Origin: an uncultured Actinomycetes bacterium
Lineage (GTDB): Bacteria; Actinomycetota; Thermoleophilia; Gaiellales; Gaiellaceae
DNA length: 64,000 bases
Assembly: GCA_963698015.1 (NCBI GenBank)
Contig: OY969109.1
Coordinates: 1,882,641 to 1,946,640 of the forward strand
Direction: 5' to 3'
Part shown: positions 9,863 through 32,362 of the stretch, in pieces
Numbering within the stretch: position 1 is the first letter of the stretch
Layout of the letters: each line of letters starts with the position of its first letter
Translations under genes and position numbers: made by a program
The notes under the pieces: generated by a model
What the model was told of the DNA's origin: nothing
What the model saw: the letters and a program-made list of their open reading frames with translations, nothing else
Databases searched by the model: none

Positions 9863-9927
9863 GCGTTCGAGCGCGCATCGAGCGACAAAGGCAAGGGGAG
9901 TCGGCCCGGAGGTTGAACTCCGAACGG

Positions 9928-10410
9928 ATGCCCGAGAGCCTCGTCCGACCCGGGAAGAAGATGTCCTTCGTCGAGCGCCGGATCCGCCGGATCGTCAATG
10001 CGCGCTCCGTGACGGTCGGCCTGGCCCTGACGTTCGTCGGCCTCTCTCTGATCGGAGGCATTCTCATTCGCTTCGTCGATCACGAGAACTTCCCGTCGGT
10101 CGGGCTAGGCATCTGGTGGGCGCTGCAAACGGTGACGACCGTGGGCTACGGCGACGTCGTGCCGACGACGCTCGCGGGCCGCACGATCGGCGGGTTGGTG
10201 ATGGCGATCGGGATCGCGTTCATCTCGTTCGTCACCGCAGGCGTGACGAGCGCGCTGATTCAGCGCGCTGCGAAGGTGGCTCACGAAGCCGATCTGGCGA
10301 ATCAAGACGAGACCGAGCAGCGGATCGTCAACGAGCTGGACAAGACGAACCGAGCGCTGACCGAGCTCGGACAGCGCCTCGACGCGATCGACTCGAAGCT
10401 GGCCGGCTAG
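9928..10410 (+). CDS. Small 2-TM potassium channel (KcsA-like) with C-terminal coiled coil
   Basis: This is the tail of track ORF 6568..10410. ATG 9928 is in frame. The selectivity filter TVGYGD sits between two TM helices. Confidence 0.85.
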   Translation: MPESLVRPGKKMSFVERRIRRIVNARSVTVGLALTFVGLSLIGGILIRFVDHENFPSVGLGIWWALQTVTTVGYGDVVPTTLAGRTIGGLVMAIGIAFISFVTAGVTSALIQRAAKVAHEADLANQDETEQRIVNELDKTNRALTELGQRLDAIDSKLAG

Positions 10411-10534
10411 TCCTCCGGCCCAAGATTGATTTTCCGCTATTCGGGTGCTAAGAACCCTCGTTCACGCATAAAAAATGGCCACTAGGCTCGTCGGCGGTCG
10501 AGATGCTGCGGGCTGGAGGGGAGAAGGGGCACAT

Positions 10535-13500: not shown

Positions 13501-14145
13501 GGGGCAGATCAACTCCGTCTGGTATCGCTTCACTCCGACGGCTGACGGGTCGGCTCACTTCGATACGTGTACCGACGTCCTGTACGACGGGTACATGGCT
13601 TCCTATACCGGCGACGCGGTCAACAACCTGACCAACATCGTCTTCAACGACGATGGCTGCGGCGGTTCCGCAACCGGAAGCGTCCTCGACTTCCCCGTCA
13701 CTGCCGGCACGACCTACTCGGTCGCTGTCGACGGCTGGGAGACTGAGGTCGGGGACTTCACGCTCACGTACACCATCCCTGGCGGCCCACCGCCACCACC
13801 GCCACCGCCGCCGCCTCCACCGTCCTCCGCCGCCTCCTCCTCCGCCTCCGCCACCGCCTCCGCCGCCTCCCCGCCTCCGCCGCCACCCCGCCTCCACCGC
13901 CACCGCCACCGCCTCCGCCGCCTCCGCCGCCTCCGCCTCGCTGCCCGCTGTCGCGTCCCGAGGTGCTCGGGCTGCGCCTCGGCGCTGCGAAGACGAAGAT
14001 CCGGCGAGCGCACTGCTCGGTCGGCAACGTCCGCCGCGTTCGCTCCAGGCGTTCGCTGCGCGGCCGTGTCGTCAACCAGGCACCGCGGCCCGGCACGATC
14101 AAGCGCCGGAACTTCCCGGTCAAGCTGGCGGTCGGCAGGAGCTAG
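10535..14145 (+). CDS. Secreted BNR/Asp-box beta-propeller protein (sortilin/GH74-like) with poly-Pro linker, NDDF... beta-sandwich domain, second linker and PASTA-like C-terminus; at least one frameshift in the second linker
   Basis: ATG 10535 follows GGAGGGGAG. The signal peptide is MKRRQIVSASLVGLVAVGVAAVVLAV. The Asp-box repeats are KSTDAGATW, SYNGGTDW and TNNGGTSW. The C-terminal domain VLGLRLGAAKTKIRRAHCSVGNV...VKLAVGRS* (track ORF 13963..14145) is reached only after a 1-nt correction in the C-run at 13886-13889. Confidence 0.8.
13328..13396 (+). repeat. Poly-proline coding tract (23 Pro codons)
   Basis: Units of cct cca cct / ccg cct, in frame with the BNR protein. Confidence 0.9.
13787..13950 (+). 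repeat. Degenerate poly-Pro / Ser-Ala linker tract that changes frame
   Basis: As written it reads 12 Pro, then SSAASSSASATASAAS, then 6 Pro, then RLHRHRHRLRRLRRLRL. The same nucleotides read as poly-Pro in the neighbouring frames. Confidence 0.8.
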
Positions 14146-14168
14146 GCCACCAACAGCAAGCACGAACA

Positions 14169-14203
14169 AAGGGCGCCTGCGAAAGCGGGCGCCCTTCTCT
14201 TTG
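14169..14203 (+). terminator. Intrinsic terminator after the BNR-protein gene
   Basis: AAGGGCGCC-tgcgaaagcg-GGCGCCCTT followed by the T-rich stretch CTCTTTGG. Confidence 0.6.
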
Positions 14204-14206
14204 GCC

Positions 14207-14269
14207 TTGACAAACTTACGCTGTACGTTTAACTTACGCCGTACACTTACAGTGTACGTTTACAGCGTA
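14207..14269 (+). promoter_or_regulatory. Sigma70-like promoter embedded in four TAC-N3-GTA operator-like repeats
   Basis: TTGACA (14207-14212), a 17-nt spacer, then TAACTT (14230-14235). The four 9-mers are TACGCTGTA (14217-25), TACGCCGTA (14235-43), TACAGTGTA (14248-56) and TACAGCGTA (14261-69). The first and last are exact reverse complements. This is a local AT-rich island in a genome of about 70% GC. Confidence 0.5.
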
Positions 14270-14279
14270 GGAGGTCATC

Positions 14280-14468
14280 ATGTTCGTCATCGACTCTCGC
14301 GACACCCTCAGCTTCGCCCGCGAGCACGCGGTTCGCCTCAAAGGCGACGCCGCGTCGGATCTCAGCCCCCGCGCGTCCTGGAAGCGGCGTTCGCCCGCCT
14401 CGTGGCTCCGCCGTCACGCATGTCACTGCAAGATCGACACTGCGCCGCTGGCGCACCGCCCGGTATGA
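14280..14468 (+). CDS. Small upstream ORF (62 codons), function unknown
   Basis: ATG 14280 lies 6 nt after AGGAGG. Third-position GC is high. Its stop overlaps the next start as ATGA (14465-14468). The product is Arg/Trp-rich and matches no family I know. Confidence 0.4.
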   Translation: MFVIDSRDTLSFAREHAVRLKGDAASDLSPRASWKRRSPASWLRRHACHCKIDTAPLAHRPV

Positions 14469-15431
14469 GAGCGATCCTCCACGAACGGTACGGCCGGCCC
14501 GACGTCCTCGAGCTGCGGGACGTCGACAAGCCGGACGATCGGAGACGAGCAGGTGCTGGTGCGCGTGCACGCGTCGTCCGTCAACCCGGTCGAGTGGTAC
14601 GGCGTGAGCGGGCCCTACTTCGCGCGAATCGGAAACGGCATGCGCCGGCCGAAGGATCAGACCGTCGGCGCCGACCTGGCGGGAACGGTCGAGGCCGTCG
14701 GTCGGAACGTACGCGGCCTGGAACCGGGCGACGAGGTCTTCGGCGTCTCGGGCGCGTCCTGGGCCGAGTACACGCTCGCCCGCGAGGACCGGCTCGCCAA
14801 GAAGCCGTCGAACCTCTCGTTCGAGGAAGCCGCGGCGGTGCCGGTGGCGGCGGTCACGGCACTCCAGGCCCTGCGCGACAAGGGGCAGGTGCAACCGGGC
14901 CAGAAGGTGCTCGTCAACGGCGCCTCCGGCGGCGTGGGCACGTTCGCCGTTCAGCTGGCGAAGACGTTCGGCGCCGACGTGACCGCCGTCTGCAGCACCG
15001 GCAACGTGGAGCAGGCCCGGTCGCTCGGCGCGGACCGCGTGGTCGACTACACGAAGGAGGACTTCACGAAGCTCGGCGTTGAGCACGACCTGATGCTCGA
15101 CATCGCCGGCAGCCGCTCGTTCCTGGCCTTCAGAAAGGTGCTGACCCCGGCGGCGACCGTCGTCCTGATCGGCGGCCGCATGACGTACCGCGGGCTCGGC
15201 CCGCTGCCGCATCTCGGCGGCACGATCCTGAAGTCGCGCTTCCGGAGCCAGAAGGTGACATTCTTCGTCGCCAAGGTGACCACGGAGGAGCTCACGTTCC
15301 TGGCCGAGCTGCTCGAGTCCGGGCAGATCCGGTCGGTCATCGACAGGACGTACGCGGTGAACGAGGCCCCCGCGGCGCTCGCCTATCTCGGCGAGGGGCA
15401 CGCACGAGCGAAAGTCGTGATCACGGTCTGA
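14465..15431 (+). CDS. Zinc-type alcohol dehydrogenase / NADPH:quinone oxidoreductase (MDR family), one frameshift near 14534
   Basis: MRAILHERYGRPDVLELRDVDKP is in one frame. (T)IGDEQVLVRVHASSVNPVEW...VLVNGASGGVGTFAVQLAK (track ORF 14553..15431) is in the +1 frame. A single extra G in ccgg at 14531-14534 explains the break. Confidence 0.8.
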
Positions 15432-15439
15432 GCGCTCCG

Positions 15440-15853
15440 CTACGACTCCGAGCCATGCTCGAGCTGCCGCTCGTACTCGTCTTCGTCGAAGTGACCGAGA
15501 GAGGCTGCGATCAGGCCGTCCTCGCCGATCGTCCACTCTTCGAAGCCGTTGATCCGAACTGTCTTGCCGGTCCCGCCGGGTCCCGTGTTCGTCCCGACGA
15601 GCGTCCAGTGATACTCGGCGCTGTCGTCCTGAATCCGCAGGCCGTCCATCAACACCTCCATGTCGGGGAAGGCGACCATGAAGGATCGGGCAGCCTCGGC
15701 GATCGCAGCTCGCCCGATCGACGGGGCGCCGGCGTTGATGGTCAGCGAGCCGCCCGGCGCATAGTGCGCGGCGACCCGCTCCGGATTCTGACTGCACCAC
15801 GCCTCGGTGTACCGCTCAGCGAGCTCCTGCAGACGGTCGGGGTCCTGTGCCAT
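15440..15853 (-). CDS. SnoaL-like / NTF2-fold protein (ester-cyclase family)
   Basis: 137 aa containing LAERYTEAWCSQNPERVAAHYAPGGSLTIN and a C-terminal beta-sheet region typical of SnoaL-like proteins. Confidence 0.65.
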   Translation of the reverse strand: MAQDPDRLQELAERYTEAWCSQNPERVAAHYAPGGSLTINAGAPSIGRAAIAEAARSFMVAFPDMEVLMDGLRIQDDSAEYHWTLVGTNTGPGGTGKTVRINGFEEWTIGEDGLIAASLGHFDEDEYERQLEHGSES

Positions 15854-22704: not shown

Positions 22705-23229
22705 TCACGCCAGGGCGCGCGCGACGATCTCTTCGACCACTTCGGTCTTGGCGTCCGCGTAGTCCTGGACGTAGGCCCACTCACGGGCGGCCAGCTCGCG
22801 CTTCGTGCGCTCGTACAGCTCGCGGTCGGCCGCGTCCGCGCGCAGGTGGTCCCGGAACGCGAGCATCCGGTCGATCTCCGGGCAGCCCTCCGTGAAGACG
22901 TGGAGGTTGACGTTCGGGTCGGCCTTCTTGAGCACGCGATGCTCGTACCAGTCGGGCTCGCGGATGCGCAGGGCGTAGCCCACCGCCTCGAGGGCCGGCA
23001 CGTACGCGTCCTCGTCCGACGAGTCGGGCACGGCCAGCACGATGTCGATGATCGGCTTCGCGACGAGGCCGGGCACGGACGTCGAGCCCGCGTGCTCGAC
23101 CAGCAGCGCCCGCACGCCGAGCGCCGTACGAATCCGCCGCGCCTCGCGCTCGAACCGCACGGGCCAGGCGTCGTCGTAGTCCACGAGCACGATCGGGCCG
23201 TCGTGGCGCGGCCGCTCGCCGATCGTCAC
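22705..23229 (-). CDS. GrpB-family (UPF0157) nucleotidyltransferase-fold protein
   Basis: VLVDYDDAWPVRFEREARRI, VEHAGSTSVPGLVAKPIIDI and NLHVF match the GrpB pattern. Confidence 0.8.
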   Translation of the reverse strand: MTIGERPRHDGPIVLVDYDDAWPVRFEREARRIRTALGVRALLVEHAGSTSVPGLVAKPIIDIVLAVPDSSDEDAYVPALEAVGYALRIREPDWYEHRVLKKADPNVNLHVFTEGCPEIDRMLAFRDHLRADAADRELYERTKRELAAREWAYVQDYADAKTEVVEEIVARALA

Positions 23230-23750
23230 AGCGGCCAGGTCGCTCTCACCGGCTCGTATTCACCCGCCCAGTCGCTGTACGCCACGCGCGGCGTGTCCGT
23301 CTCCTGCGGCGTGGAGGCGCCGAAGCGCCCGGCGACCTCGCTGACCGGATAGTGGAGCTCCTTGCCCTCACCGCGCAGTCCGGCCATCAGGATCGCGCAC
23401 GGCCCGTCGCCGGCGCCGACGATGATGTGGTGCGTCCCCGGCGCGCAGTGGAAGAAGTCCCACGCCTGCAGGCGCCTCTCCTCGTCCTCGACGATCAGGA
23501 TGCACTCGCCGGAGAGGACGAGGAAGTCCTCCTGGAGGCTCTCGGAGTGGTACTTGCCGTTCGGTTGGCCGGGTTGCAGCACGTGGACGCCGATCCCGTA
23601 TCCGTCGAAGCCTTCCGGCGGCTCGAAGTCGGACCACTGGCCGCCTTCGCTCCGCATCCAGCGGGCGTCCGCGAGGTTGAGCACGAACCAGCCGGGTGTA
23701 CCGGCGAATGCGCCCTGCTCGGCCTGCTCGATCCTCGCCTCTTCGGTCAC
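23226..23750 (-). CDS. Cupin-domain protein
   Basis: GVHVLQPGQPNGKYHSESLQEDFLVLSGECILIVEDEE...HCAPGTHHIIVG matches the two cupin motifs. A 4-nt stop/start overlap joins it to the GrpB gene. Confidence 0.7.
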   Translation of the reverse strand: MTEEARIEQAEQGAFAGTPGWFVLNLADARWMRSEGGQWSDFEPPEGFDGYGIGVHVLQPGQPNGKYHSESLQEDFLVLSGECILIVEDEERRLQAWDFFHCAPGTHHIIVGAGDGPCAILMAGLRGEGKELHYPVSEVAGRFGASTPQETDTPRVAYSDWAGEYEPVRATWPL

Positions 23751-23821: not shown

Positions 23822-25084
23822 GTGGCGATCACAGACGACGTCACTGCGGCGAACGAGCGCGCGGACCGCGGCCCGGGCTACGGGTTGCCGCCGCCGGACA
23901 CGGGGAGCGCTGTCCTCGATGCGATCGCACGCCTTTTTCTCTTCGCGATCCATGCCGAGCGTCGGGTCGACCCCTTCTTCCGGCCGGCGCTCGACGCGGT
24001 CCTGCGCGAGCCGCTGTCGAGGCTGACGACCGCGCTCATCAACCTGCGGCGAAAGGACGATGGCCTCGGTCTCGCGGAGGAGAGGCTCCAGCCGAGCGAG
24101 GAGGCTCATGTCGACGAGATCATCGCGGCCTTCACCGCGCAGATGAACCGGCTCTGGCGGCCGGGCTACTTCGAGCGCGGAGGGAACACGAAGACTCACG
24201 GCATCGTGCGCGCCGAGTTCGTCGTCCGGGACGACGTCCCCGAGCACATGCGGCGCGGGATCTTCGCGGAGCCCCGGACGTATCCCGCCTGGGTGCGGTT
24301 CTCCGGGCCGGGGCCGTACGTATCGGCAGACATCGACGACGTCGGCTTCATGAGCATGACGATCAAGGTGATGGGCGTCCCAGGCCCGAAGCTGCTCGAC
24401 GACGAGCAACATACGCAGGACTTCCTGGGCGTCTCGACGCCGACGTTCGTGACGCCGAATACCCGGGCGAACGTGCGGCTCCAGTACTGGAGCTACCGGA
24501 ATGCTCCGATGTTCTACTTCGTCGACCCTCGGGACTCGCACTTCCTCGACTCGATCATGCAGCTGCTCTGGACGAAGACGCAGACGAGCCCGCTCGAGGG
24601 CGACTACTTCGGGTGTGTCCCGTACCTGCTCGGCGAGGGCCAGGCGATGCAGTACGCGTTCCTGACCAGGCGCAAGAAGCGGAGCCGCGTGCCACGGCTA
24701 CCTCGGCGTCCTCCCGACAACTATCTCCGCGAGGCCATGGCGGCGACCCTCTCCGAGGAGGACGTCGAGTTCGACATCGTGCTCCAGATGCAGACCGACC
24801 CGCACAAGATGCCGATCGAGAACAACGCCGTGCTGTGGCCGACGAACCTATCGCCGCGCGTGCCGGCCGCCGTCGTGCGCATCCCGACGCAGACCTTCGA
24901 CTCGCCCGGGCAGCTCGAGTTCGCGCGGGTGCTGACGTACAACCCCTGGCACTGCATCGCCGAGCATCGGCCGCTCGGCAACCAGAGCCGCGCCCGGAAG
25001 CGGATGTACTACGAGCTCGCGCGCCTGCGTCAGCGGATGAACCAGGTCGAGCACTACGAGCCGACCGGCGACGAGACCTTCTAG
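23822..25084 (+). CDS. Catalase-related haem protein (mini-catalase / allene-oxide-synthase-like family)
   Basis: GTG 23822 follows GGAGGAG. GGNTKTHGIVRAEFVV gives the distal His context. YPAWVRFSGPGPY..ADIDDVGFMSMTIKV matches the catalase core. RKRMYYELARLRQ gives the proximal Tyr/Arg context. Confidence 0.6.
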   Translation: MAITDDVTAANERADRGPGYGLPPPDTGSAVLDAIARLFLFAIHAERRVDPFFRPALDAVLREPLSRLTTALINLRRKDDGLGLAEERLQPSEEAHVDEIIAAFTAQMNRLWRPGYFERGGNTKTHGIVRAEFVVRDDVPEHMRRGIFAEPRTYPAWVRFSGPGPYVSADIDDVGFMSMTIKVMGVPGPKLLDDEQHTQDFLGVSTPTFVTPNTRANVRLQYWSYRNAPMFYFVDPRDSHFLDSIMQLLWTKTQTSPLEGDYFGCVPYLLGEGQAMQYAFLTRRKKRSRVPRLPRRPPDNYLREAMAATLSEEDVEFDIVLQMQTDPHKMPIENNAVLWPTNLSPRVPAAVVRIPTQTFDSPGQLEFARVLTYNPWHCIAEHRPLGNQSRARKRMYYELARLRQRMNQVEHYEPTGDETF

Positions 25085-25202
25085 GGGTCGGACCCCTTTA
25101 CAAGGTGTTCGCCTCGGCGGGCGGATTTTGCGGAGGTCCTGTTCTGGTTGCGCGCCTTCGGTCGCAGTGTCGGCACACTTTTGGAGCGGGGTCTGACCCC
25201 GT

Positions 25203-26537
25203 TCAGGGGGACGCGAGGCGGCGAAGGGCTTTCAGGCCCGGCAGGAAGAAGTAGGCGCCGCCTTTGACCGAGATGAACCGCGGGACGCCCGAGACGCGCG
25301 TCCTCAGGCTCTCGGACTGCACGGTGAACGTTCCGCCGAACGGCTTCGACTGGCCCACGAGCGGGTCGGAGTCGTCGTAGAGCCCGGCGAACTTCGGGTT
25401 GTTCAGCCACGTGCTCTGGACGAACTCGAACTGCCGCGTGATGTTCGCGTTCAGGCAGATGAAGTGGAGGCCCCGCTCCTCCTCGTCGCCCCCGCCGATG
25501 AGCGCCTTCTCGGCCGGCAGCGCCTGGCCGTACTCGCGCCCGCGACGCAGGAGGCGGTGGCGCCGGTTGATCGCGAGCGACTTGTCCGAGCCGGGCCGCG
25601 GGTCGAGCGAGTCACGCGGGTTCGTTCGCCGAACGTGAGCGCCGATCGGACAACGCGCGCCCTCGCGATCCTCGTCGAAGTAGCCGAAGTCGTTCGCCTC
25701 GGCCAGGGCGGGATCGTCGACGGCCGGCGAGAGCGCCAGCGGCGCGCCTCCGGGCCAGCGGCCGACCATCTTCGCCGCCAGACGCACGCGCGCCTCCTCT
25801 CCGGACGCGACCCCGTCGAGGAACTGCCAGAACCCGTGCACGTCCTGCCGGAGCTGGCGCAGGACGAGATATGTCCCGTTGAGGCCGATCGGCTCTGCGC
25901 CCTCGAGGAGCGGCTGGTCGGTGTAGTGCCCGTGCTCGTTCACGTACCCGAGGACGAACTCGCCCGTGCGCACCGTCTGTCCTGCCGGGCCTGTCTTCGA
26001 GAGCCCTTCGACGAACGGCTGCGAGATGCCGTCGCGGAACCCGAACGGCTCGAAGCCGTCCAGGTCGGACGTCTCGAGCCGATGCTCGATCCGCACGCCC
26101 GATCCGTCGAGCAGCCGGGTCTGCTCCTCGACCAAGCGTGCCAGCCCCGCGTCGTCCTGCGCGTAGAGGAGGAGCACTGCGTCGATCGGCGCAGTGGCCG
26201 GCCCGCCCCAGTCCCAGCGCTCCGGGGCGTCGTCGCCGACGTCGCCGAGGACTCGCCGGCGGTGCTCGGTCGTCATCCCGTGAACGAACGCGTTCGAGAA
26301 CTGCAGCAACACGTCCGGCGCGAGCCCGAGGCGCTCAAGCCCGCGGGCGGTGAATGCGATGTTGACCGCCCGCTCCTCCGGCCGCTCGTCCCCGGCCGTG
26401 ACGGTCTCCAGGACCGATGCGAGCCAGCGCCCGCCGGGGGCTCCGTCCTCAAGGCCGAGAAGCAGGAACGACGCGGCCTTCAGCGACCCGTAACCCCGGG
26501 CGACGAGCCCCTGGACGTCCGCCAGCTCGAGCGTCAC
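25203..26537 (-). CDS. DyP-type haem peroxidase
   Basis: The GTG start overlaps the upstream stop (GTGA at 26534-26537). FGFRDGISQP is the GxxDG motif and CPIGAHVRRTNPRD carries the proximal His. 444 aa. Confidence 0.88.
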   Translation of the reverse strand: MTLELADVQGLVARGYGSLKAASFLLLGLEDGAPGGRWLASVLETVTAGDERPEERAVNIAFTARGLERLGLAPDVLLQFSNAFVHGMTTEHRRRVLGDVGDDAPERWDWGGPATAPIDAVLLLYAQDDAGLARLVEEQTRLLDGSGVRIEHRLETSDLDGFEPFGFRDGISQPFVEGLSKTGPAGQTVRTGEFVLGYVNEHGHYTDQPLLEGAEPIGLNGTYLVLRQLRQDVHGFWQFLDGVASGEEARVRLAAKMVGRWPGGAPLALSPAVDDPALAEANDFGYFDEDREGARCPIGAHVRRTNPRDSLDPRPGSDKSLAINRRHRLLRRGREYGQALPAEKALIGGGDEEERGLHFICLNANITRQFEFVQSTWLNNPKFAGLYDDSDPLVGQSKPFGGTFTVQSESLRTRVSGVPRFISVKGGAYFFLPGLKALRRLASP

Positions 26538-27787
26538 AGCAGCTGCAGCCAGCGCCCGGCCTCCTCTCCGCTCAACTCGCCATGGAGACCCGCTCGGAGC
26601 CGCTCGTTCCCGGCGACGTTCGCCGCGCTGAGCCGGCCGTACGCCGAATACCAGACATGCGTCGGCACCTGGTGCCGGCGCAGGTAGTCCTTGAACGCGA
26701 GCTCGTCGCGTGAGCCGTCGAGGACGAGCCAGCGCGTCGTCGGGTAGCCGAAGCCGTTGCTGAAGACGATGTTCAACCCCCACGAGATCTGGTCGATGAA
26801 GTCGTCCATGTAGCTCTCGAGGCTGCCGTCGTAGTTGCTGGCGAAGAAGACGCGCCGCCCCTCGTCGAGGAAGACCCAACGCGCGAAGTGAATCGTCTTG
26901 ACCCCGGCCAGGCTGCCGCGGTTGAAGACGTGGCGGGCCGCGAACGCGATGCCGTTCAGGACGCTGATGATCGTGAGCCGCCTGAAGAGGCCCGGCTTGA
27001 CGAACCCGATCGCGGTGAACGGGTTCTGGACGACGTGGTCCTCGAGCGCCGCCAGTCGCTGGACGGTCTCTTCGTCCGGCTTCAGGCGCTCCATCCGGTC
27101 GGCCCGTTCGTGGCGCCGGAGCAGGAAGGCGTACACGGGCGCGCCCACGAGGAAGAGCGGCGTCAGCAGGAGCAGCCCGAGCGGGATCAGCACGAACTGA
27201 GCCTTCTCCCGAACACGCCATCCGAGCGGTGGGGCCGGTTCCGCTTCGCGCGCCCACCTGAGCGACGGCTCGCTCTCGACGAAGCGCACGATCTCGGCGC
27301 GGATCGCTGCGGGGTCGACCCCCTCGAGGTATGCGCCCCGCTCGTCCAGGAAGCGCTCGAGCGCATCGCGCAACTCGGCTTCGCGACGAATCTGCCGGAC
27401 GCCACGCCCGGGCCTGTTCACGTACCGCGCCTGCTCCTTGGCCACGTGCCTGCGCAGGAAGCCGACCCGGTCGTCCTCGGAATAGCCCTCGCACGAGCCG
27501 AAGACCGCGTCGAGCCCGTCCGCGGCCGAGAGCTCCGCAAGGTGCCGCTCCGGCTCGACGTCGAAGTCGCTCAGGTAGACGAGCGTCGCGGGCAAGGGCC
27601 GGCCGTCCAGGTCGACGGTCTCCTCGAGCAGGAAGAGCCGCGCGAAGTGCACGTCCGTGAGCGCGCCGAGATCGAGCACGGAACCGTTCGCGACCCCGTC
27701 GCCCATCGACGCGAGCAGGTCTCGCAGGCCCGCCGTCTCGCCCGGTCGAACGTGTGCGGCGATCGTCAGTGCCGACTGGCGGGTCAA
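26534..27787 (-). CDS. Conserved hypothetical protein with duplicated HFAR(L/W) motif and a central hydrophobic segment
   Basis: 417 aa. The motifs are DVHFARLFLLEE and TIHFARWVFLDEGRRVFFASNYDGSLESYMDDFI. The hydrophobic stretch is FVLIPLGLLLLTPLFLVGAPVYAFLL. Both ends overlap their neighbours by 4 nt. Confidence 0.6.
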   Translation of the reverse strand: MTRQSALTIAAHVRPGETAGLRDLLASMGDGVANGSVLDLGALTDVHFARLFLLEETVDLDGRPLPATLVYLSDFDVEPERHLAELSAADGLDAVFGSCEGYSEDDRVGFLRRHVAKEQARYVNRPGRGVRQIRREAELRDALERFLDERGAYLEGVDPAAIRAEIVRFVESEPSLRWAREAEPAPPLGWRVREKAQFVLIPLGLLLLTPLFLVGAPVYAFLLRRHERADRMERLKPDEETVQRLAALEDHVVQNPFTAIGFVKPGLFRRLTIISVLNGIAFAARHVFNRGSLAGVKTIHFARWVFLDEGRRVFFASNYDGSLESYMDDFIDQISWGLNIVFSNGFGYPTTRWLVLDGSRDELAFKDYLRRHQVPTHVWYSAYGRLSAANVAGNERLRAGLHGELSGEEAGRWLQLL

Positions 27788-28224
27788 TCCGCCGGGAACT
27801 CGAGTGCGAAGTTCAGGATCCTCGCCCGCTCCCAGTAGACGATCCCGAGATAGGTCGCCGGCGCCACGAGGCGGATCTCGTCTCTGATCCAGTGCGCGAC
27901 GAGCGACGTCTTCGAGTAGTCGAGGACGATCGACTCCCTGTCGTCGAACCAGCTCGTCTGCTTGTAGACCTTCGCCCGCACCGCCTTGATCCCGAAGGGC
28001 AGGATCTCGTTGAGGAGCTCGCCCTTGGCCGGATCGAAGACCTTGCCCTTCCAGGCGAACAGGTGCAGGAGCTTGGCGGCCGGCCCTGCGAGCTCGGTCC
28101 CAGGCGCGACGAGCACGGTTCCTTCCGCCTCGCCGTTCGGAATCGGTCCGGCGTCGCTGGCCCGGAAGAGGTCGTCGAGCTCCTCCTGGGGCATCCGCAG
28201 CAGGTCGGGCACGGTTGGCGGCAT
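27784..28224 (-). CDS. Small soluble protein, possibly GXWXG/DUF4334-like
   Basis: 146 aa taken from ATG 28224 (the tail of track ORF 27784..30033). Contains HLFAWKGKVF and SIVLDYSKTSLVAHWIRDEIRLVAPATYLGIVYW. The family call is tentative. Confidence 0.45.
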   Translation of the reverse strand: MPPTVPDLLRMPQEELDDLFRASDAGPIPNGEAEGTVLVAPGTELAGPAAKLLHLFAWKGKVFDPAKGELLNEILPFGIKAVRAKVYKQTSWFDDRESIVLDYSKTSLVAHWIRDEIRLVAPATYLGIVYWERARILNFALEFPAD

Positions 28225-28261
28225 CTGCACCCCGGCGTTGCTTGGCGGCGAACCTAGCACG

Positions 28262-28291
28262 TTGACTCCGCCCGGAGAAGAGTGCTTACAT
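28262..28291 (+). promoter_or_regulatory. Candidate promoter of the haem-peroxidase gene in the divergent intergenic region
   Basis: TTGACT (28262-28267), an 18-nt spacer, then TTACAT (28286-28291), about 40 nt upstream of ATG 28333. Confidence 0.35.
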
Positions 28292-28332
28292 CGGGCCGAC
28301 GTCTGCGGCAACGGGCTCGAAAGGACTCTCGC

Positions 28333-30114
28333 ATGTCGTTTTCGTCGCTGCTCCGAGGCGCGGCCGACTCGCTCGACCGGCGGTTCGGCTGGGATCATCT
28401 GCCTTTGCCGGCCGGCGTCCTCACCCTCGTCGGGCTGCGCGACCGCTTGCGTGAGGAGAACCTCTACGACACCGGGCGTGGCGCTCTCGACGTGCCCCCG
28501 GTCTCCGACCACGACGGCTATCTGACGTCGCGGACGCTCGACGGCACCTACAACGACCTCAACGACCCGCTGATGGGAAGCCTGGGCAGTCGCTTCGGCC
28601 GCAACGTGCCGCTCTCGTTTACGTACCGCGAGCCTCCGGACGCCATGCTCGACCCGAGCCCGAGGCTCGTCAGCCGGCAGCTGCTGACGCGCGAGGAGTT
28701 CCAGCCGGCGACGACGCTGAACCTGCTCGCCGGTGCCTGGATCCAGTTCGAGGTGCACGACTGGTTCAGCCACGGCAAGCCGGCGCCCGAGGAGCCGTGG
28801 GAGATCCCGGTGGACGACGACGACCCGTGGCCCGAGCATCCGATGAAGATTCCCCGCACGCACGCAGACCCGAGCACCGACCCGAACCAGCCGCACACGT
28901 TCGTCACCGACGACACGCACTGGTGGGACGGCTCGCAGATCTACGGCCGCGACCCCGCGTTCGCCGACGCGCTTCGTTCGGGCGAGAACGGGAAGCTGCG
29001 CATCGACGAGCAGGGCCTGCCGCCTCAGGAGCTCGAGGCGCACATCGACCTCAGCGGCGTCGCAGGCAACTTCTGGGTCGGCCTCGCGCTCCTGCATTCG
29101 CTCTTCATGCGCGAGCACAACGCGATTTGCGACGAGCTGCACGCGCGCCACCCCGAGCTCACGGAGCAGCAGCTCTACGACAAGGCGCGGCTGATCAACG
29201 CTGCGCTGATGGCCAAGATCCACACCGTCGACTGGACGCCCGCGATCATCGCCCACCCGACGACGGTCCTTGCTCTGCGCGCCAACTGGTGGGGCCTCGA
29301 GGGCGAGTCGCTGGATAAGCGCTTCGGCCGCAAGACCTCGAACGAGGTGATCCGCGGAATCCCCGGCTCGCCGACCAACCACCACGGCGTCCGCTACTCC
29401 CTGACCGAGGAGTTCGTCGCCGTCTACCGCATGCACCCGCTGATCCCGGACGACTACAGCTTCCGCTCGCTCGGGACGGATGCGCTGCTCCACGAGCACA
29501 CGCTCGAGGACCTGGGCGCATTGCACGTCCGCGAGCGGCTCGACGAGACGTCGATGCCCGACCTCTTCTACTCGTTCGGGACGTCCCATCCGGGCGCGAT
29601 CACGTTGCACAACTTCCCGCGGTTCCTCCAGACGTTCCACCGGCCAGACGGGACGACGATCGACCTCGCGGCGACCGACGTCCTCCGCACGCGCGAGCGC
29701 GGGGTGCCCAGGTACAACCAGTTCCGGCGCCTCTTCCACCTCAAGCCGGTCGACTCGTTCGAGGAGCTGACGGGCGACCCGGAGGTCGCGGAGGAGCTGC
29801 GCGCGGTGTACAACGACGTCGAGCGCGTCGACCACATGATCGGGATGTACGCAGAGCCGAAGCCGAAAGGGTTTGGGTTCAGCGACACGGCCTTCCGCGT
29901 CTTCATCCTTATGGCCTCGCGCCGGCTCAAGAGCGACCGGTTCTTCACGCGCGACTACCGGCCGGAGGTCTACACGCAGACGGGTCTCGACTGGATCGAG
30001 GACAACTCGATGCGCTCGCTGCTGCTGCGCCACATGCCCGAGCTCGAGCCCGCCCTGCGCGGGGTCGAGAATCCGTTCGCTCCCTGGCGGCGGGCCGGGT
30101 CGTCCGCAGCGTGA
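28333..30114 (+). CDS. Animal-haem-peroxidase superfamily protein, fatty-acid alpha-dioxygenase / cyclooxygenase-like
   Basis: LLAGAWIQFEVHDWFSH, THWWDGSQIYG, LHSLFMREHNAICD and GVRYSLTEEFVAVYRMHPLIPD are present. The Y-R-M-H element is equivalent to the Tyr/His pair YHWH of cyclooxygenases and YRMH of plant alpha-DOX. Confidence 0.85.
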   Translation: MSFSSLLRGAADSLDRRFGWDHLPLPAGVLTLVGLRDRLREENLYDTGRGALDVPPVSDHDGYLTSRTLDGTYNDLNDPLMGSLGSRFGRNVPLSFTYREPPDAMLDPSPRLVSRQLLTREEFQPATTLNLLAGAWIQFEVHDWFSHGKPAPEEPWEIPVDDDDPWPEHPMKIPRTHADPSTDPNQPHTFVTDDTHWWDGSQIYGRDPAFADALRSGENGKLRIDEQGLPPQELEAHIDLSGVAGNFWVGLALLHSLFMREHNAICDELHARHPELTEQQLYDKARLINAALMAKIHTVDWTPAIIAHPTTVLALRANWWGLEGESLDKRFGRKTSNEVIRGIPGSPTNHHGVRYSLTEEFVAVYRMHPLIPDDYSFRSLGTDALLHEHTLEDLGALHVRERLDETSMPDLFYSFGTSHPGAITLHNFPRFLQTFHRPDGTTIDLAATDVLRTRERGVPRYNQFRRLFHLKPVDSFEELTGDPEVAEELRAVYNDVERVDHMIGMYAEPKPKGFGFSDTAFRVFILMASRRLKSDRFFTRDYRPEVYTQTGLDWIEDNSMRSLLLRHMPELEPALRGVENPFAPWRRAGSSAA

Positions 30115-30479
30115 AGAGCGGCGACGTCGCGCGCGTCGCGCTCGCCGCGATCCGGATCTTCAACGGTGGCACCGCGCTGGTCGCACCGGAGCGGCTCAAC
30201 CGGAGGCTCGGCCTCGACGAGACCGCGGTCTATCCCTGGCGGATGTTCGGGATCCGGACCGTGCTGATCGGCGTCGATCTCCTCTCGAGCGACCGCGATG
30301 TGAGGCGCCATGCGCAGCGCCTGGCCTTGCTCGTCCACGTCTCGGACACTGTCTCGGCGGCCAGGGCCGGCTACACGAAGGCGCTCTCGCCACGTGCCGC
30401 CGCGACGGCGACCGCGATCTCGGCGGTCAACGTCGGCCTCGCGCTCGTCGCAAGCCGGGACGCCTGGCGCAGACCCTAG
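30111..30479 (+). CDS. Small hydrophobic hypothetical protein
   Basis: GTG 30111 overlaps the peroxidase stop (GTGA). 122 aa with 3-4 hydrophobic segments. Confidence 0.5.
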   Translation: MKSGDVARVALAAIRIFNGGTALVAPERLNRRLGLDETAVYPWRMFGIRTVLIGVDLLSSDRDVRRHAQRLALLVHVSDTVSAARAGYTKALSPRAAATATAISAVNVGLALVASRDAWRRP

Positions 30480-32362
30480 CCTGTCGGCCCCACGCGTCCC
30501 AGCCGGTTGAAGATCGGCGTCGTGACGTAAACGGCACCGAGCGAGTAGACGAAGAGCAGCGGCGCCATGACGATGGGCACGAGGTAGGAGACGATCAGCA
30601 TCCCCGGCCACCGGACGAAGGCCGGACCGCGCTCCTTCACGTAGAGCACGATCAGCAGTGGCGTCACGACGAGTGGCAGCAGGAGCCACCAGACCGGCCA
30701 GTCCGAGCCGAGCGCGTCCGCGATGTCGTCCCACCGGACGACGAGGAGCGCGAGCAGAGCGACGATCGCGAGCCCGGCTGCGACCTTCAGCGCCTTGAGC
30801 GCGCGGGGGAACAGCGAGATCGGCTTGAAGAACCGCTGGCGCGCGACGGCCAGCCGGCGCCCGAAGCCGGCGGGCAGCGGCGAGGCACCGCTCTGGTCGA
30901 CCACAACGCGAAAGTCCCAGCGCTCGGGAACGGGCGACACGTCCGGGGGGCCGGTCGCGATGAAGTCGGCGAACCGAGGATCGCGGCCCAGCACGAAGTC
31001 GGTCATCAGGTACCCGTCGAGCATGAGCGAGAAGCACTCCGTGTCGCTGAACGAGTCGAGGTCGGTGCGGACGCGCGACAGCAGTCGCTGGGCCTCGATG
31101 GAGATGCCGAAGTCCGAGGAGAGCGGCTTGACCTGGAGCATCTCCTTCGGCCCGGCCTCGACCGGCTGCCCGTCGTCCGCGAGCGGCAGCTCGACGGCGC
31201 CGACGAGCCCCTTGCGCAGGTGCATGAGGGCGATCGGCTCGGGCCGCGCGAAGGCGTGCGCGAGCTGCTCGTCGCGAACGCGGTCTCCGAAGATCGAGTT
31301 GGCTCGGCCCGCTACGCCGGGGATGCGCGTGAGCGGCAGGCTCTCATCGGCCAGCTGGCCGGACGCGTCGCTGACGATGAGGTGGGTGCAGTCGGTGTCG
31401 AACAACCCCTGCAGTCCCTGGTTGTCGTGCACGCCTCCGTCGACGAGCTCGACGCGGATCCCGTCGTAGAGGTCGCTGATCGCGAGTGGGTGGAAGAGCG
31501 CCGGCACGCAGGCGGAGGCGGCCACCGCCACGGCGAGCGGAAAGTCGCGCTGCCGGCTCGTGATCGCGCGGTGGCGCGTGGCCGACGACGTGTCGGGCTC
31601 GAAATAGCCCGGCTCGAGCCGCATGTTCTTGTCGACGTTCGCGTAGACCTCTCGCGCGACCTCGTCGTTGGGCAGGGGCTCGCCCATCCGCACGGCCTCG
31701 AAGCGCCAGTTGTGGCCGGTGTTGAGCGTCGTCGCGTTGATCAGGAGCACGGGCACCTTCGCGTGCTTCCGCCCCGGATTGTGCTCGTCGGGCCGGAACG
31801 AGTCGGCTTCGTCGGGGGGCATGATCTTGAGCTCGCTGAGCGCGATCTGCTGGTCGACGAGGCCGAACCAGCGCTTCGGTCGCGGCGTGCCCCAGGCCGG
31901 CTTGTAGAAGAGCCGGTCGTAGAGGTCGCCGATCCGGTCGCTCCGCGAGTACGTTGCCTTCGCCATCCAGACGTTCTTGGGCAGATTGAGGAACGCGCGC
32001 GCCCGGATGTTCTTCTGGATCGCGTGCCGGAAGTCGCGTTGGATCGCCTCGACGATGGCGACGTACTCCGAGTTGTCGTCTCCGATCTCGGAGTCGCCTT
32101 TGCGTTCGAGGAGGTTCTTGACATGCAGGTAGTAGAGGGCCCCGATGATCGAGCCGCCCGAGACCATCGAGATCACCTCGACCCTGCGCAGGATCCCGAG
32201 CTCCGCGAGCCGCGCGAGGACACCGACGTGGAAGAGGGCCGCGCGGAAACCGCCGCCGGACAGGGCGAGGCCGATCTTGACCGGAGCGGCTGAGTCGGCG
32301 TTTGGCACTTGGACGGCGCCTCCACGATCCCACCAAGCCAGCGGGGTTGTCAATCGGCCCAC
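30476..32362 (-). CDS. Patatin-like phospholipase with C-terminal multi-TM anchor
   Basis: GLALSGGGFRAA is the oxyanion G-G-G-x-R motif, MVSGGSIIG the nucleophile elbow and LVDGGVHDNQG the catalytic Asp. Three C-terminal TM helices are present (for example WPVWWLLLPLVVTPLLIVLYV). The start is uncertain; an alternative GTG lies at 32308. Confidence 0.85.
   Translation of the reverse strand: MGRLTTPLAWWDRGGAVQVPNADSAAPVKIGLALSGGGFRAALFHVGVLARLAELGILRRVEVISMVSGGSIIGALYYLHVKNLLERKGDSEIGDDNSEYVAIVEAIQRDFRHAIQKNIRARAFLNLPKNVWMAKATYSRSDRIGDLYDRLFYKPAWGTPRPKRWFGLVDQQIALSELKIMPPDEADSFRPDEHNPGRKHAKVPVLLINATTLNTGHNWRFEAVRMGEPLPNDEVAREVYANVDKNMRLEPGYFEPDTSSATRHRAITSRQRDFPLAVAVAASACVPALFHPLAISDLYDGIRVELVDGGVHDNQGLQGLFDTDCTHLIVSDASGQLADESLPLTRIPGVAGRANSIFGDRVRDEQLAHAFARPEPIALMHLRKGLVGAVELPLADDGQPVEAGPKEMLQVKPLSSDFGISIEAQRLLSRVRTDLDSFSDTECFSLMLDGYLMTDFVLGRDPRFADFIATGPPDVSPVPERWDFRVVVDQSGASPLPAGFGRRLAVARQRFFKPISLFPRALKALKVAAGLAIVALLALLVVRWDDIADALGSDWPVWWLLLPLVVTPLLIVLYVKERGPAFVRWPGMLIVSYLVPIVMAPLLFVYSLGAVYVTTPIFNRLGRVGPTG

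Follow-up and report, generated by a model that had tools for sequence, protein, structure and literature searches.

A conserved six-gene module with three haem enzymes, probably acting on fatty acids, around an alpha-dioxygenase homologue of a soil actinobacterium

In Nostoc punctiforme, the gene for a linoleate 10S-dioxygenase adjoins a separate gene for a catalase-related 10S-hydroperoxide lyase (Brash et al. 2014, J Biol Chem 289:13101). As this pair is described in PMC9579011 and PMC13049297, a small catalase-related haem protein consumes the hydroperoxide formed by a fatty-acid dioxygenase of the peroxidase-cyclooxygenase family encoded next door. Judged by these descriptions, it appears to be the closest known system to the locus studied here. 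The alpha-dioxygenases (alpha-DOXs) of plants and cyanobacteria have been described as stand-alone enzymes, and the words catalase, gene cluster and neighbour are absent from the paper on the cyanobacterial ones (PMC8720084), whereas the alpha-DOX gene of this locus forms part of a conserved module with several haem proteins. In the tree published in the same paper, actinobacterial sequences cluster with the cyanobacterial alpha-DOXs.

The locus belongs to a soil actinobacterium. Throughout, the window is the whole stretch of DNA that was analysed (64,000 nucleotides). GC3-based gene calling and translation yielded intact genes at 23822–25084, 25203–28224, 28333–30114 and 30476–32362, where a sequence-only reading of the window had placed four enzymes acting in sequence on fatty acids: a catalase-related haem protein, a DyP peroxidase operon, an alpha-DOX-like peroxidase and a patatin-like lipase. 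The layout is that of two divergent operons and a separate catalase-like gene:

23822–25084, plus strand: catalase-related haem protein (catL), 420 aa
25203–26537, minus strand: DyP-type haem peroxidase (DyP), 444 aa
26534–27787, minus strand: U417, from a family without assigned function
27784–28224, minus strand: U146, small soluble protein from a family without assigned function
28225–28332: divergent intergenic region between the DyP operon and the alpha-DOX operon
28333–30114, plus strand: alpha-dioxygenase-family haem protein (alpha-DOX), 593 aa
30111–30479, plus strand: U122, small hydrophobic DUF4267-like protein, 122 aa
30476–32362, minus strand: membrane-anchored patatin-like lipase, 628 aa

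The alpha-DOX product matches PF03098 (Pfam, E=5.3e-112) and, over its full length, rice alpha-DOX 4kvj (E=1.8e-118, residues 13–585). The match to the Arabidopsis enzyme 4hhr has E=2.2e-106, and matches to COX are far weaker (about 1e-18). Identity to the rice enzyme is 40%, the level given for experimentally verified cyanobacterial alpha-DOXs (PMC9305512). All four alpha-DOX/COX motifs named in the sequence-only reading, WIQFEVHDW, THWWDGSQIYG, EHNAICD and YSLTEEFVAVYRMH, are present in the translation, and the catalytic Tyr/His pair expected there is kept together with the carboxylate-binding residues. The protein has distal His142, catalytic Tyr365 and proximal His368, as well as His297 and Arg531, with Thr302, for carboxylate binding; with roles assigned from PMC8720084, the equivalents of Tyr379, His157, His382, His311, Thr316 and Arg559 were all found. 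The catalytic, haem and carboxylate-binding residues are invariant across 12 homologues. The enzymes of rice (4KVJ/4KVK) and Arabidopsis (4HHR) and the cyanobacterial CalDOX and LepDOX share with this protein the YRMH Tyr/His pair, the distal His, and the His and Arg that bind the carboxylate. By these matches, the product of 28333–30114 is a full-length alpha-dioxygenase homologue. To our knowledge, the family has no characterised member from actinobacteria.

The region upstream of alpha-DOX contains a conserved sigma-70-like element, TTGACT (28262–28267) and TTACAT (28286–28291) separated by an 18-nt spacer, and a conserved AACCTA box at 28252–28257 (TAGGTT on the minus strand). In the alignment of ten orthologous intergenic regions the columns TTGAC, TG.TT and AT are invariant. 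A generic promoter scan found no promoter here; we consider TTGACT/TTACAT the putative promoter of the alpha-DOX operon. U122, which the sequence-only reading had missed, is translationally coupled to alpha-DOX, its start overlapping the alpha-DOX stop codon, and follows it in 22 loci. DUF4267 was matched by 6 of 15 members of the U122 family (best E=1.1e-6), the window copy reaching only E=0.039.

The length and start of catL are the same as in its 120 closest homologues, and its relatives are named 'catalase family protein' by NCBI. Ordinary searches did not bear out the label of a catalase-related protein: catL had no match in Pfam or NCBIfam, nor in PDB when searched as a single sequence, and scored below the Pfam Catalase threshold. 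Comparison of profiles and folds did confirm it. Profile A2 matched catalase 4b7f (E=0.0028), MAP-2744c of Mycobacterium avium subsp. paratuberculosis (3e4w, 0.0035) and the coral allene oxide synthase cAOS (1u5u, 0.077). The AF2 model has moderate overall confidence (pLDDT 72, pTM 0.77), with the N-terminal 90 residues predicted poorly. Its best Foldseek matches were 3e4y (8.4e-12) and 1u5u (1.3e-11), catalases being next, with target-length normalised TM-scores of 0.64 for MAP-2744c and 0.60 for coral AOS. On this profile search and predicted fold, catL groups with the mini-catalase MAP-2744c and coral AOS and not with ordinary catalases, as its earlier assignment to the family of allene oxide synthases and hydroperoxide-converting mini-catalases implied.

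The putative haem-binding residues Arg119, Arg159, Tyr396 and Arg403 of catL, mapped to cAOS R64, R102, Y353 and R360 using PMC5617202, are invariant, and Tyr396 is the putative proximal haem ligand. While the Tyr ligand and haem-propionate Arg are thus conserved relative to MAP-2744c (3E4W/3E4Y) and coral AOS (1U5U), identity to them is only 16–17%, and catL, with its 420 aa, has a 90-residue N-terminal extension. Catalases and coral AOS use a distal His; catL has Asn122 at this position, and Asn is typical of its subfamily. The motif RGGNTKT occurs in 119 of 120 close homologues, and RDAHAK in all 120 homologues of the mycobacterial type. Since the distal His is absent, catalase activity of catL is unlikely. 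Its absence had been overlooked in the sequence-only reading.

At 25203–28224, read earlier as a DyP peroxidase operon, neighbouring genes (U146/U417 and U417/DyP) overlap by 4 nt each, the GTG start of DyP overlapping the stop of U417. Hence this is a three-gene operon in which DyP is the last gene only, and the other two genes do not encode DyPs. The DyP product matches TIGR01413 (NCBIfam, 99.3 bits). Profile A4 matched 8re3 (3e-78), the ancestral D-type DyP 7anv (5e-60) and, further, fungal DyPs, DyP2 4g2c and Anabaena 5c2i; G166-F-R-D169-G170 and His301 are invariant in A4, and no signal peptide was found in DyP. To class V enzymes (8RE3, fungal DyPs, Amycolatopsis DyP2 4G2C, Anabaena AnaPX 5C2I) the profile match is strong and full-length, and DyP retains their GXXDG Asp and proximal His as well as the distal Arg region. 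Judging by this comparison, the product of 25203–26537 is a genuine class V (C/D-type) DyP. It differs from these enzymes in belonging to an obligate trio with U417 and U146, which elsewhere are fused to DyP or to each other.

U417 has one strongly hydrophobic central segment (residues 198–222) and a highly conserved C-terminal domain (TIHFARW...SNYDGSLESYMDDFID). Searches of Pfam, NCBIfam and PDB gave no match for it, and an hhalign comparison with DyP gave none either; its family comprises 2525 clusters at 50% identity. In the loci examined it always adjoins DyP and U146. Natural fusions join U417 to DyP (P0387, P0460, P0479, P0485, P0495, P0389) and U146 to U417 (P0362, 57% identity; P0373, 50%). 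By these associations U417 is a dedicated DyP partner. U146, with no match in Pfam or PDB, is co-conserved with both. The four-enzyme arrangement had been thought undescribed. No account of DyP partners like U417 and U146 turned up in the literature searched; the pairing of a dioxygenase with a catalase-related protein is known from Nostoc, at least as summarised in the above sources, and is thus not wholly unprecedented.

Synteny was analysed with alpha-DOX as the anchor and, separately, with U417. The conserved module consists of six genes, U146, U417, DyP, U122, alpha-DOX and catL. They are found together in 15–16 genome loci despite rearrangement and in nearly all U417-anchored metagenome loci with enough flanking sequence; in eight divergent loci all six are co-directional on one strand, and the linkage spans phylum-level diversity. 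The supposed synteny of alpha-DOX, catL and the DyP operon thus holds in many genomes and metagenomes, even where the genes have been rearranged. The sequence-only reading had not recognised a conserved unit of six genes, of which three belong to families with no assigned function.

Of 83 alpha-DOX loci, 36 have a catalase-like gene no more than 10 kb from alpha-DOX (15 of the window type and 21 of the mycobacterial type). Mycobacterium and Nocardia have a simpler pair of alpha-DOX and a His-type catalase-like gene; the mycobacterial gene is usually directly downstream of alpha-DOX, and in L077 the pair overlaps in the sequence ATGA. It is in these pairs that the two-gene logic common to alpha-DOX with catL and to the Nostoc pair, as the latter is described, appears clearest. 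The Nostoc dioxygenase is, by the same descriptions, of the 10S-DOX type, whereas that of the window is of the alpha-DOX type with YRMH and C-2 carboxylate-binding residues; the window also differs in the Asn of catL and in four further co-conserved genes (the DyP trio and U122). About half of alpha-DOX loci contain neither a catalase-like gene nor DyP, the neighbours being instead a metallo-beta-lactamase-fold protein, GMC oxidoreductases, or DUF480 with an AAA ATPase. Hence alpha-DOX can do without these partners.

The patatin-like lipase matches PF01734 (Pfam, E=4.4e-19) and has the membrane anchor ascribed to it earlier, in the form of three hydrophobic C-terminal segments (524–542, 557–575 and 587–605). 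It shares with PF01734 phospholipases the domain, the GGGxR oxyanion motif, the catalytic Ser and the DGG Asp, and differs in this three-helix anchor and in the nucleophile elbow, M-V-S-G-G in place of the usual G-x-S-x-G.

From sequence and genomic context, the module is probably a pathway oxidising fatty acids. Our main reading, to which we give a probability of roughly 55%, is that its three haem enzymes process free fatty acids on the cytoplasmic side of the membrane; we infer the substrates, products, order of steps, physical complex and membrane topology as follows. Using a tyrosyl radical, alpha-DOX would add O2 to the fatty acid at C-2 and so form the 2-hydroperoxy acid. CatL, with its Tyr-ligated haem and Asn at the distal-His position, would convert the hydroperoxide into one defined product (a chain-shortened aldehyde, a 2-hydroxy acid or a 2-oxo acid are candidates) in place of uncontrolled decay. 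DyP would form a complex with U417 and U146 that keeps it at the membrane, and would use that hydroperoxide or a related peroxide, reducing it or drawing on it to power further oxidation. U122 would act as a small membrane protein coupled to alpha-DOX, and in this lineage only, the patatin may supply free fatty acids. Since 2-hydroperoxy acids decay spontaneously, their conversion does not call for an enzyme of its own. We also count against this reading that about half of the alpha-DOX loci have neither a catalase-like gene nor DyP, that in a few loci a GMC oxidoreductase stands in for alpha-DOX, that catL has no distal His, that U417 has a single hydrophobic segment and that the predicted catL structure has a pLDDT of only 72.

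The patatin was earlier taken as the first of four enzymes, and one could make it the obligatory start of a pathway leading from lipase to dioxygenase to catL and DyP. In the window, as in L001, L004, L090 and L092, it directly adjoins the alpha-DOX operon, its catalytic residues and anchor are in place, and other lipases recur close to the module. We nevertheless find such a pathway unlikely, given that patatin orthologues adjoin the module only in these four loci, the window's closest relatives, where alpha-DOX is 86–93% identical and unrelated flanking genes (GrpB, cupin) are shared too, which explains the adjacency by recent common ancestry; in about 35 further loci with the module, no lipase is in reach. 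Absent from most module loci, the patatin is not a fixed first step and, judging by its distribution, is a lineage-specific neighbour outside the conserved core. A chance neighbourhood of unrelated genes could be argued from the two divergent operons, the separate catL and the lack of an identified shared regulator or operator. It is scarcely credible overall and effectively refuted for the six-gene core, whose linkage persists across rearrangements and phylum-level diversity and extends to fusions; it could still hold for no more than the patatin and the flanking genes further out.

Fungal aryl-alcohol oxidases and peroxidases form relays in which an oxidase fuels a peroxidase. If the module worked likewise, alpha-DOX would mainly make peroxide, and the DyP trio with catL would be the business end, attacking another compound, e.g. 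an aromatic, a pigment or an antibiotic. In L133, L135 and L143 a GMC oxidoreductase indeed replaces alpha-DOX beside the DyP trio, adjoining catL as well in L133 and L135, so the trio and catL may answer peroxide generally and not 2-hydroperoxy acids specifically. The DyP trio accompanies the Asn-type catalase-like gene in every locus examined and the His-type in none, the DyP class includes enzymes oxidising dyes and lignin models, and in P0471 U417 is fused to a cytochrome P450. We hold such a relay possible but doubtful: alpha-DOX keeps all residues for fatty-acid binding and C-2 hydrogen abstraction, none of which a plain peroxide source needs, and export signals are absent from all the proteins, which makes extracellular polymers unlikely targets. 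A general defence against peroxides, with three haem proteins scavenging H2O2 and organic peroxides and forming no product of their own, would suit the membership of alpha-DOX, DyP and catL in peroxidase or catalase superfamilies. It would also suit MAP-2744c, the structural neighbour of catL, for which the depositors reportedly described organic-peroxide-dependent peroxidase activity in 2009. Defence is nonetheless improbable, as catL lacks the distal His, tight linkage of six genes including three non-enzyme-like partners is atypical of scavenging genes, and alpha-DOX enzymes produce hydroperoxides and do not remove them (PMC9305512). For the fatty-acid pathway, the recurring neighbours carry some weight as well: they are lipase and not aromatic-catabolism genes, and 12 loci have patatin or class-3 lipase genes, of several unrelated forms, next to alpha-DOX or the module, a minority that mildly supports lipid substrates.

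The G+C content of the window is about 69%, and third-position GC was used to pick out the real reading frames. The genes of the region are listed below (U417, U146 and U122 denote proteins named by their length).

22705-23229, minus strand, GrpB
23226-23750, minus strand, cupin
23822-25084, plus strand, catL, catalase-related haem protein, 420 aa
25203-26537, minus strand, DyP peroxidase, 444 aa
26534-27787, minus strand, U417
27784-28224, minus strand, U146
28333-30114, plus strand, alpha-DOX, haem peroxidase, 593 aa
30111-30479, plus strand, U122
30476-32362, minus strand, patatin-like lipase, 628 aa
32399-33268, plus strand, carbon-nitrogen hydrolase

U146 overlaps U417, and U417 overlaps DyP, by 4 nt; these three hence form one operon, and U122 overlaps the stop codon of alpha-DOX. 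The sequence-only reading described a possible four-enzyme oxylipin or lipid-peroxide cluster (patatin lipase, alpha-DOX-like peroxidase, mini-catalase and DyP), and its coordinates and quoted motifs agree with the translated gene calls. The DyP gene is indeed present in what was termed a DyP operon, but two-thirds of this operon, U417 and U146, are not DyP; the U122 gene was absent from the list. The GrpB and cupin genes, which overlap by 4 nt and lie on the opposite strand just upstream of catL, are common only to the closest relatives (loci L001 and L004) and do not belong to the module considered here, that is, U146, U417, DyP, U122, alpha-DOX and catL.

The alpha-DOX protein matches the animal haem peroxidase domain PF03098 (E=5.3e-112, residues 67-572). 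The search against all PDB sequences yielded the rice fatty-acid alpha-oxidase 4kvj as the best match (E=1.8e-118, residues 13-585) and the Arabidopsis alpha-DOX 4hhr at E=2.2e-106, whereas a lactoperoxidase (3e-30) and cyclooxygenases (COX-2, about 5e-18) scored far weaker. Among PDB sequences, the peroxidase is thus closer to solved alpha-DOX than to COX or other peroxidases, in line with the proposed alpha-DOX-like identity. The window protein is 40% identical to the rice enzyme over 564 aligned positions; a comparable identity level has been reported for cyanobacterial alpha-DOXs shown to make fatty aldehydes (PMC9305512).

Residues of the rice enzyme and their counterparts in the window alpha-DOX, counted along the printed alignment (chain index = native number + 3). 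PMC8720084 is the source of the roles given for His311, Arg559 and Thr316.
His157, distal His: window His142
Tyr379, catalytic Tyr: window Tyr365
His382, proximal His: window His368
His311, fatty-acid carboxylate binding: window His297
Arg559, fatty-acid carboxylate binding: window Arg531
Thr316, C-2 positioning: window Thr302

The numbering offset is confirmed by the PDB entry of the Y379F mutant (4kvl), which differs exactly at the Tyr365 column. The catalytic Tyr/His pair is retained after alignment, as part of a conserved Y-R-M-H motif, and all six residues are invariant in 12 homologues with 75-87% identity (alignment A1). Judging from these alignments, the peroxidase is an alpha-dioxygenase homologue, which would be predicted to form 2(R)-hydroperoxides. 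Alpha-DOX makes 2(R)-hydroperoxy fatty acids that decay to Cn-1 aldehydes (PMC9305512). Alpha-DOX-family sequences from Actinobacteria are already present in a published tree, where they cluster with cyanobacterial ones and are given without characterisation or gene context (PMC8720084).

Single-sequence searches of Pfam, NCBIfam and PDB gave no match for the window catL or its relative from M. senegalense, and PF00199 (Catalase) did not match the window catL at E<=0.01. A PF00199 match is precomputed for a few relatives of the mycobacterial type, and NCBI names the relatives "catalase family protein". A profile was built from 6 window-type and 10 distant mycobacterial-type sequences (25-31% identical); only this profile, spanning both subfamilies, gave matches. 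Its PDB matches include catalases from E=0.0028, the 33-kDa catalase-related protein MAP-2744c, aligned over nearly the whole length (E=0.0035), and the coral allene oxide synthase (cAOS, E=0.077); the catalase superfamily accounts for 10 of the 12 matches listed. The AlphaFold model based on a shallow alignment (all sequences at least 74% identical) had pLDDT 48 and was unusable. The AF2 model based on an alignment of both subfamilies had pLDDT 72 and pTM 0.77, with values above 90 in the beta-barrel core. Foldseek against PDB ranked MAP-2744c first (3e4y, E=8.4e-12, target-normalised TM-score 0.64) and cAOS second (1u5u, E=1.3e-11, target-normalised TM-score 0.60), followed by the second crystal form of MAP-2744c (3e4w), the AOS-lipoxygenase fusion (3dy5) and then true catalases, and all top 50 matches belong to the catalase superfamily. 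As MAP-2744c and cAOS lead this ranking, the catalase-related family suggested for catL is right, and catL is a catalase-fold protein of the mini-catalase / cAOS kind.

Five residues of catL (Arg119, Arg159, Arg390, Tyr396 and Arg403) do not vary in either subfamily, and the R-x5-Y-x6-R motif is present in 240/240 homologues. Judging by motif spacing, Arg119, Arg159, Tyr396 and Arg403 probably correspond to the haem residues R64, R102, Y353 and R360 of cAOS (PMC5617202). The distal His (R-x-x-H-A-K) is absent from the window catL, which reads R-G-G-N-T-K with Asn122 at this position. Asn occupies the distal position (RGGNTKT) in 119 of the 120 closest homologues, referred to as Asn-type, and the distal His of RDAHAK is kept in all 120 mycobacterial-type homologues, referred to as His-type. 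An ordinary monofunctional catalase fragment, the alternative identity for catL, is ruled out by these motif counts together with the Foldseek ranking. The position of catalase Asn148 and cAOS Asn137 is apparently taken by Ser205 (G-V-S-T-P vs G-N-N-T-P in a motif alignment made by eye). The single exception among the 120 window-type homologues (P0121-P0240) has a distal His, in the sequence RGGHTKT. The window-type proteins also have an N-terminal extension of about 90 residues (window 23822-24090, residues 1-90), predicted with low confidence to form long helices; mycobacterial-type relatives lack it.

The DyP profile matched 8re3 at 3e-78, the ancestral D-type DyP 7anv at 5e-60, and Amycolatopsis DyP2 (4g2c), Anabaena AnaPX (5c2i) and fungal DyPs at 1e-37 to 1e-48 in PDB, and the single-sequence Pfam and TIGRFAM scores were just under the cut-offs. 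The Asp of the GXXDG motif (G166-F-R-D169-G170), the proximal His301 (GAHVRR) and R331-R332-G are invariant in the alignment of DyP homologues (A4), and Arg331 is, by analogy, probably the distal Arg. The profile matches to solved DyPs agree with the earlier assignment and show that this is a genuine DyP of class V (C/D type). An EfeB-type (class A) enzyme, with the operon serving EfeUOB iron uptake, is rejected: TIGR01412 scored 20.5 bits vs the cut-off of 428, the protein has no N-terminal signal sequence, and its neighbours are U417 and U146.

Synteny was analyzed from two anchors. The alpha-DOX-anchored set included 80 species-representative genomes and 3 metagenome contigs; the nearest genome is a Gaiellaceae MAG with alpha-DOX 93% identical to that of the window. 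Window-type catL, DyP, U417, U146 and U122 accompany alpha-DOX in 15-16 of these loci, which come mostly from Actinomycetota MAGs; several of these bear the label Gaiellaceae, and one is labelled Acidimicrobiia. In these loci catL occurs on either side, and the gene order differs in L038 and L062. For the U417 anchor, 80 metagenome loci were compared, of which 29 have a length of 6 kb or more. U146, U417 and DyP, further called the DyP trio, are found together in 27 of these 29 loci; one of the two exceptions is a contig ending before DyP, the other has no U146. Alpha-DOX is present in 23, U122 in 21 and catL in 21 of the 29, and the loci lacking these genes are mostly variants with a GMC-family flavoprotein oxidoreductase or contigs that break off shortly beyond the trio. 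Eight divergent loci (U417 47-49% identical) carry all genes on one strand in the order U146-U417-DyP-U122-alpha-DOX-catL. The DyP trio is present wherever Asn-type catL is seen and never with His-type catL. Given the synteny from both anchors, the six-gene core is a real, selectable unit.

The GMC oxidoreductase stands at the alpha-DOX position in three loci, and in two of them, L133 and L135, it has the DyP trio on one side and catL on the other. Roughly half of all alpha-DOX genes have neighbours other than the module or the catalase-like gene, in the metallo-beta-lactamase, GMC/CMD and DUF480 contexts given below.

Recurrent contexts in the compared loci.
Alpha-DOX followed by a His-type catalase-family gene (363-375 aa), about 10000-15600: L041, L044-L047, L053, L055, L058, L063, L064, L067, L075-L081, L083
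Metallo-beta-lactamase-fold protein, 350-380-aa protein and papain-like peptidase downstream of alpha-DOX: L015, L016, L019, L020, L024
U122, two GMC oxidoreductases and a CMD-family protein: L021, L029-L031, L034-L036
DUF480 and AAA ATPase upstream of alpha-DOX: L040, L042, L048-L051, L061
GMC variant: L133 and L135 (10669-12318 and 13525-14634), L143 (8998-10386)

Some genes that are intact in the window were called as two shorter ORFs in close relatives, namely catL in L001 (5447-6711) and U417 in L002 (8056-9802) and L003 (6676-7964). The cause is either a frameshift or an error in long-read assembly.

Alpha-DOX, catL and DyP are thus kept together in relatives, as the four-enzyme proposal implied, whereas the patatin is not. 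The patatin itself matches PF01734 (E=4.4e-19), and its translation contains the oxyanion motif SGGGFRA, the catalytic Ser in MVSGGS and the Asp in VDGGV, with Met replacing the first Gly of G-x-S-x-G in the nucleophile elbow M-V-S-G-G and three C-terminal membrane segments. Its orthologues adjoin the module only in L001, L004, L090 and L092; L001 and L004 have the unrelated GrpB and cupin genes in common with the window too, as expected under recent common ancestry. The patatin is therefore an accessory gene and not a core member. Unrelated patatins lie beside alpha-DOX or the module in L010, L027, L052, L038, L106 and, weakly, L036, and a class-3 lipase directly follows catL in L133 and L135.

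A catalase-related gene lies within 10 kb of alpha-DOX in 36 of the 83 alpha-DOX loci. Mycobacterial-type catL was found in 21 loci, in 19 of which it immediately follows alpha-DOX; nearly all 21 come from Mycobacterium, Mycolicibacterium, Mycolicibacter, Mycobacteroides and Nocardia, with a few MAGs bearing other labels. The two genes overlap by 4 nt in L077 and by ATGA in M. senegalense. In L068 and L070 the catalase-like gene is located divergently upstream of alpha-DOX. In Mycobacterium, Mycolicibacterium and Nocardia the next gene after the pair usually encodes a LuxR-family regulator (about 900 aa, including an ATPase domain), and in many mycobacterial-type loci genes for a subtilisin-like protease and a protein of 423 aa are located close by. 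According to later papers, the hydroperoxide made by a related haem dioxygenase of Nostoc is passed on to a catalase-related lyase that has its own gene (Brash 2014, cited in PMC9579011 and PMC13049297). The gene adjacency is the same here, but the residue pattern of the window dioxygenase is alpha-DOX-like.

U417 consists of a strongly conserved C-terminal domain and one very hydrophobic central segment. The hydrophobic stretch (residues 198-222) contains a conserved Pro (LLLLTPLFLVGAP) and might anchor the protein as a monotopic hairpin instead of spanning the membrane as a helix; it has weak, chance-level matches to oleosin/promethin Pfam models in some family members. An exhaustive HMMER search (E<=0.001) yielded a family of 2525 clusters at 50% identity, for which there is no Pfam model. 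No significant match to U417 was found in PDB (10- and 53-sequence profiles), NCBIfam or Pfam (member by member), nor in an hhalign comparison with the DyP profile, so that the profile and hhalign searches do not support a DyP-like barrel. U146 had no match in Pfam or PDB. U122 is small and hydrophobic, and DUF4267 is matched by 6 of 15 family members (best E=1.1e-6).

Proteins that are encoded apart in one organism and fused in another are classically taken to act together. U146 is fused to U417 in two proteins: the N-terminus of P0362 shares 57% identity with U146, and that of P0373 shares 50%. Fusions of U417 with DyP are P0387, with the C-terminal half 51% identical to the window DyP, and P0460, P0479, P0485, P0495 and P0389. 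From these natural fusions we infer a U146-U417-DyP complex that would be tethered to the membrane by U417. Further fusions join U417 with a cytochrome P450 (P0471) and with an EEP domain (Endonuclease/Exonuclease/phosphatase family, PF03372; P0366), and U417 thus may serve haem or lipid enzymes besides DyP. In L060 a U146 homologue (9554-9982, 63% identity) lies directly upstream of alpha-DOX in the same direction, in a locus without U417 and DyP; hence U146 may also work with the dioxygenase.

The family identities, intact catalytic residues, co-conservation and fusions are observed here, and the mechanism is inferred. In the most likely one, alpha-DOX would oxygenate free fatty acids, fed in this lineage by the patatin; catL would channel the hydroperoxide to a defined product, and the membrane-tethered DyP complex would use or remove the same peroxide. 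The repeated recruitment of different lipases gives mild support for lipid substrates. As the main rival, an oxidase-peroxidase relay could act on some other substrate; this view is kept alive by the swap of alpha-DOX for a GMC oxidoreductase. A more far-reaching reading, to which we assign a probability of roughly 0.3, is a previously undescribed peroxide relay of abundant soil Actinomycetota, in which the DyP complex, the Asn-type catalase-fold haemoprotein and a peroxide-forming oxygenase would convert membrane fatty acids to a specific product class. In this reading most loci would use an alpha-dioxygenase as the oxygenase, and some a GMC oxidase; the U146-U417-DyP complex would be membrane-anchored, tripartite and modular enough for fusions, including that of U417 with P450; and the products could be, e.g., cross-linked lipids, aldehydes of shortened chain length, or 2-oxo or 2-hydroxy acids. 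If this relay is true, U417 and U146 would represent accessory proteins of a new type that serve haem enzymes as a module.

Our literature search found no paper linking DyP with alpha-DOX or a catalase-related gene, and we know of no earlier study of any of the six module proteins. The two-gene logic was already known from Nostoc, as were actinobacterial alpha-DOX sequences in a tree; the six-gene module, the Asn-type catalase-fold partner, the DyP trio with its fusions, and the widespread pair of alpha-DOX and a catalase-like gene in Mycobacterium and Nocardia are new. To our knowledge, bacterial alpha-dioxygenases have so far been known only as stand-alone biocatalysts from cyanobacteria. 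Fixed partner genes in very common soil bacteria, along with the simpler pair in Mycobacterium and Nocardia, provide a concrete route to the natural function and products of these enzymes. The module also suggests natural substrates for the bacterial catalase-related mini-haemoproteins, whose role, as far as we know, has been open since the structure of MAP-2744c. Further, it provides two defined protein partners, U417 and U146, for class-V DyP peroxidases, for which we know of no established physiological function in bacteria. Each proposed step is testable with recombinant proteins and fatty acids.

No gene of the module encodes a regulator, and a generic promoter and terminator scan found nothing. 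Ten orthologous U146/alpha-DOX intergenic regions share the promoter-like element TTGACT-N18-TTACAT upstream of alpha-DOX (window 28262-28291), which is probably a promoter. A second box conserved in the same ten regions is TAGGTT when read on the other strand.
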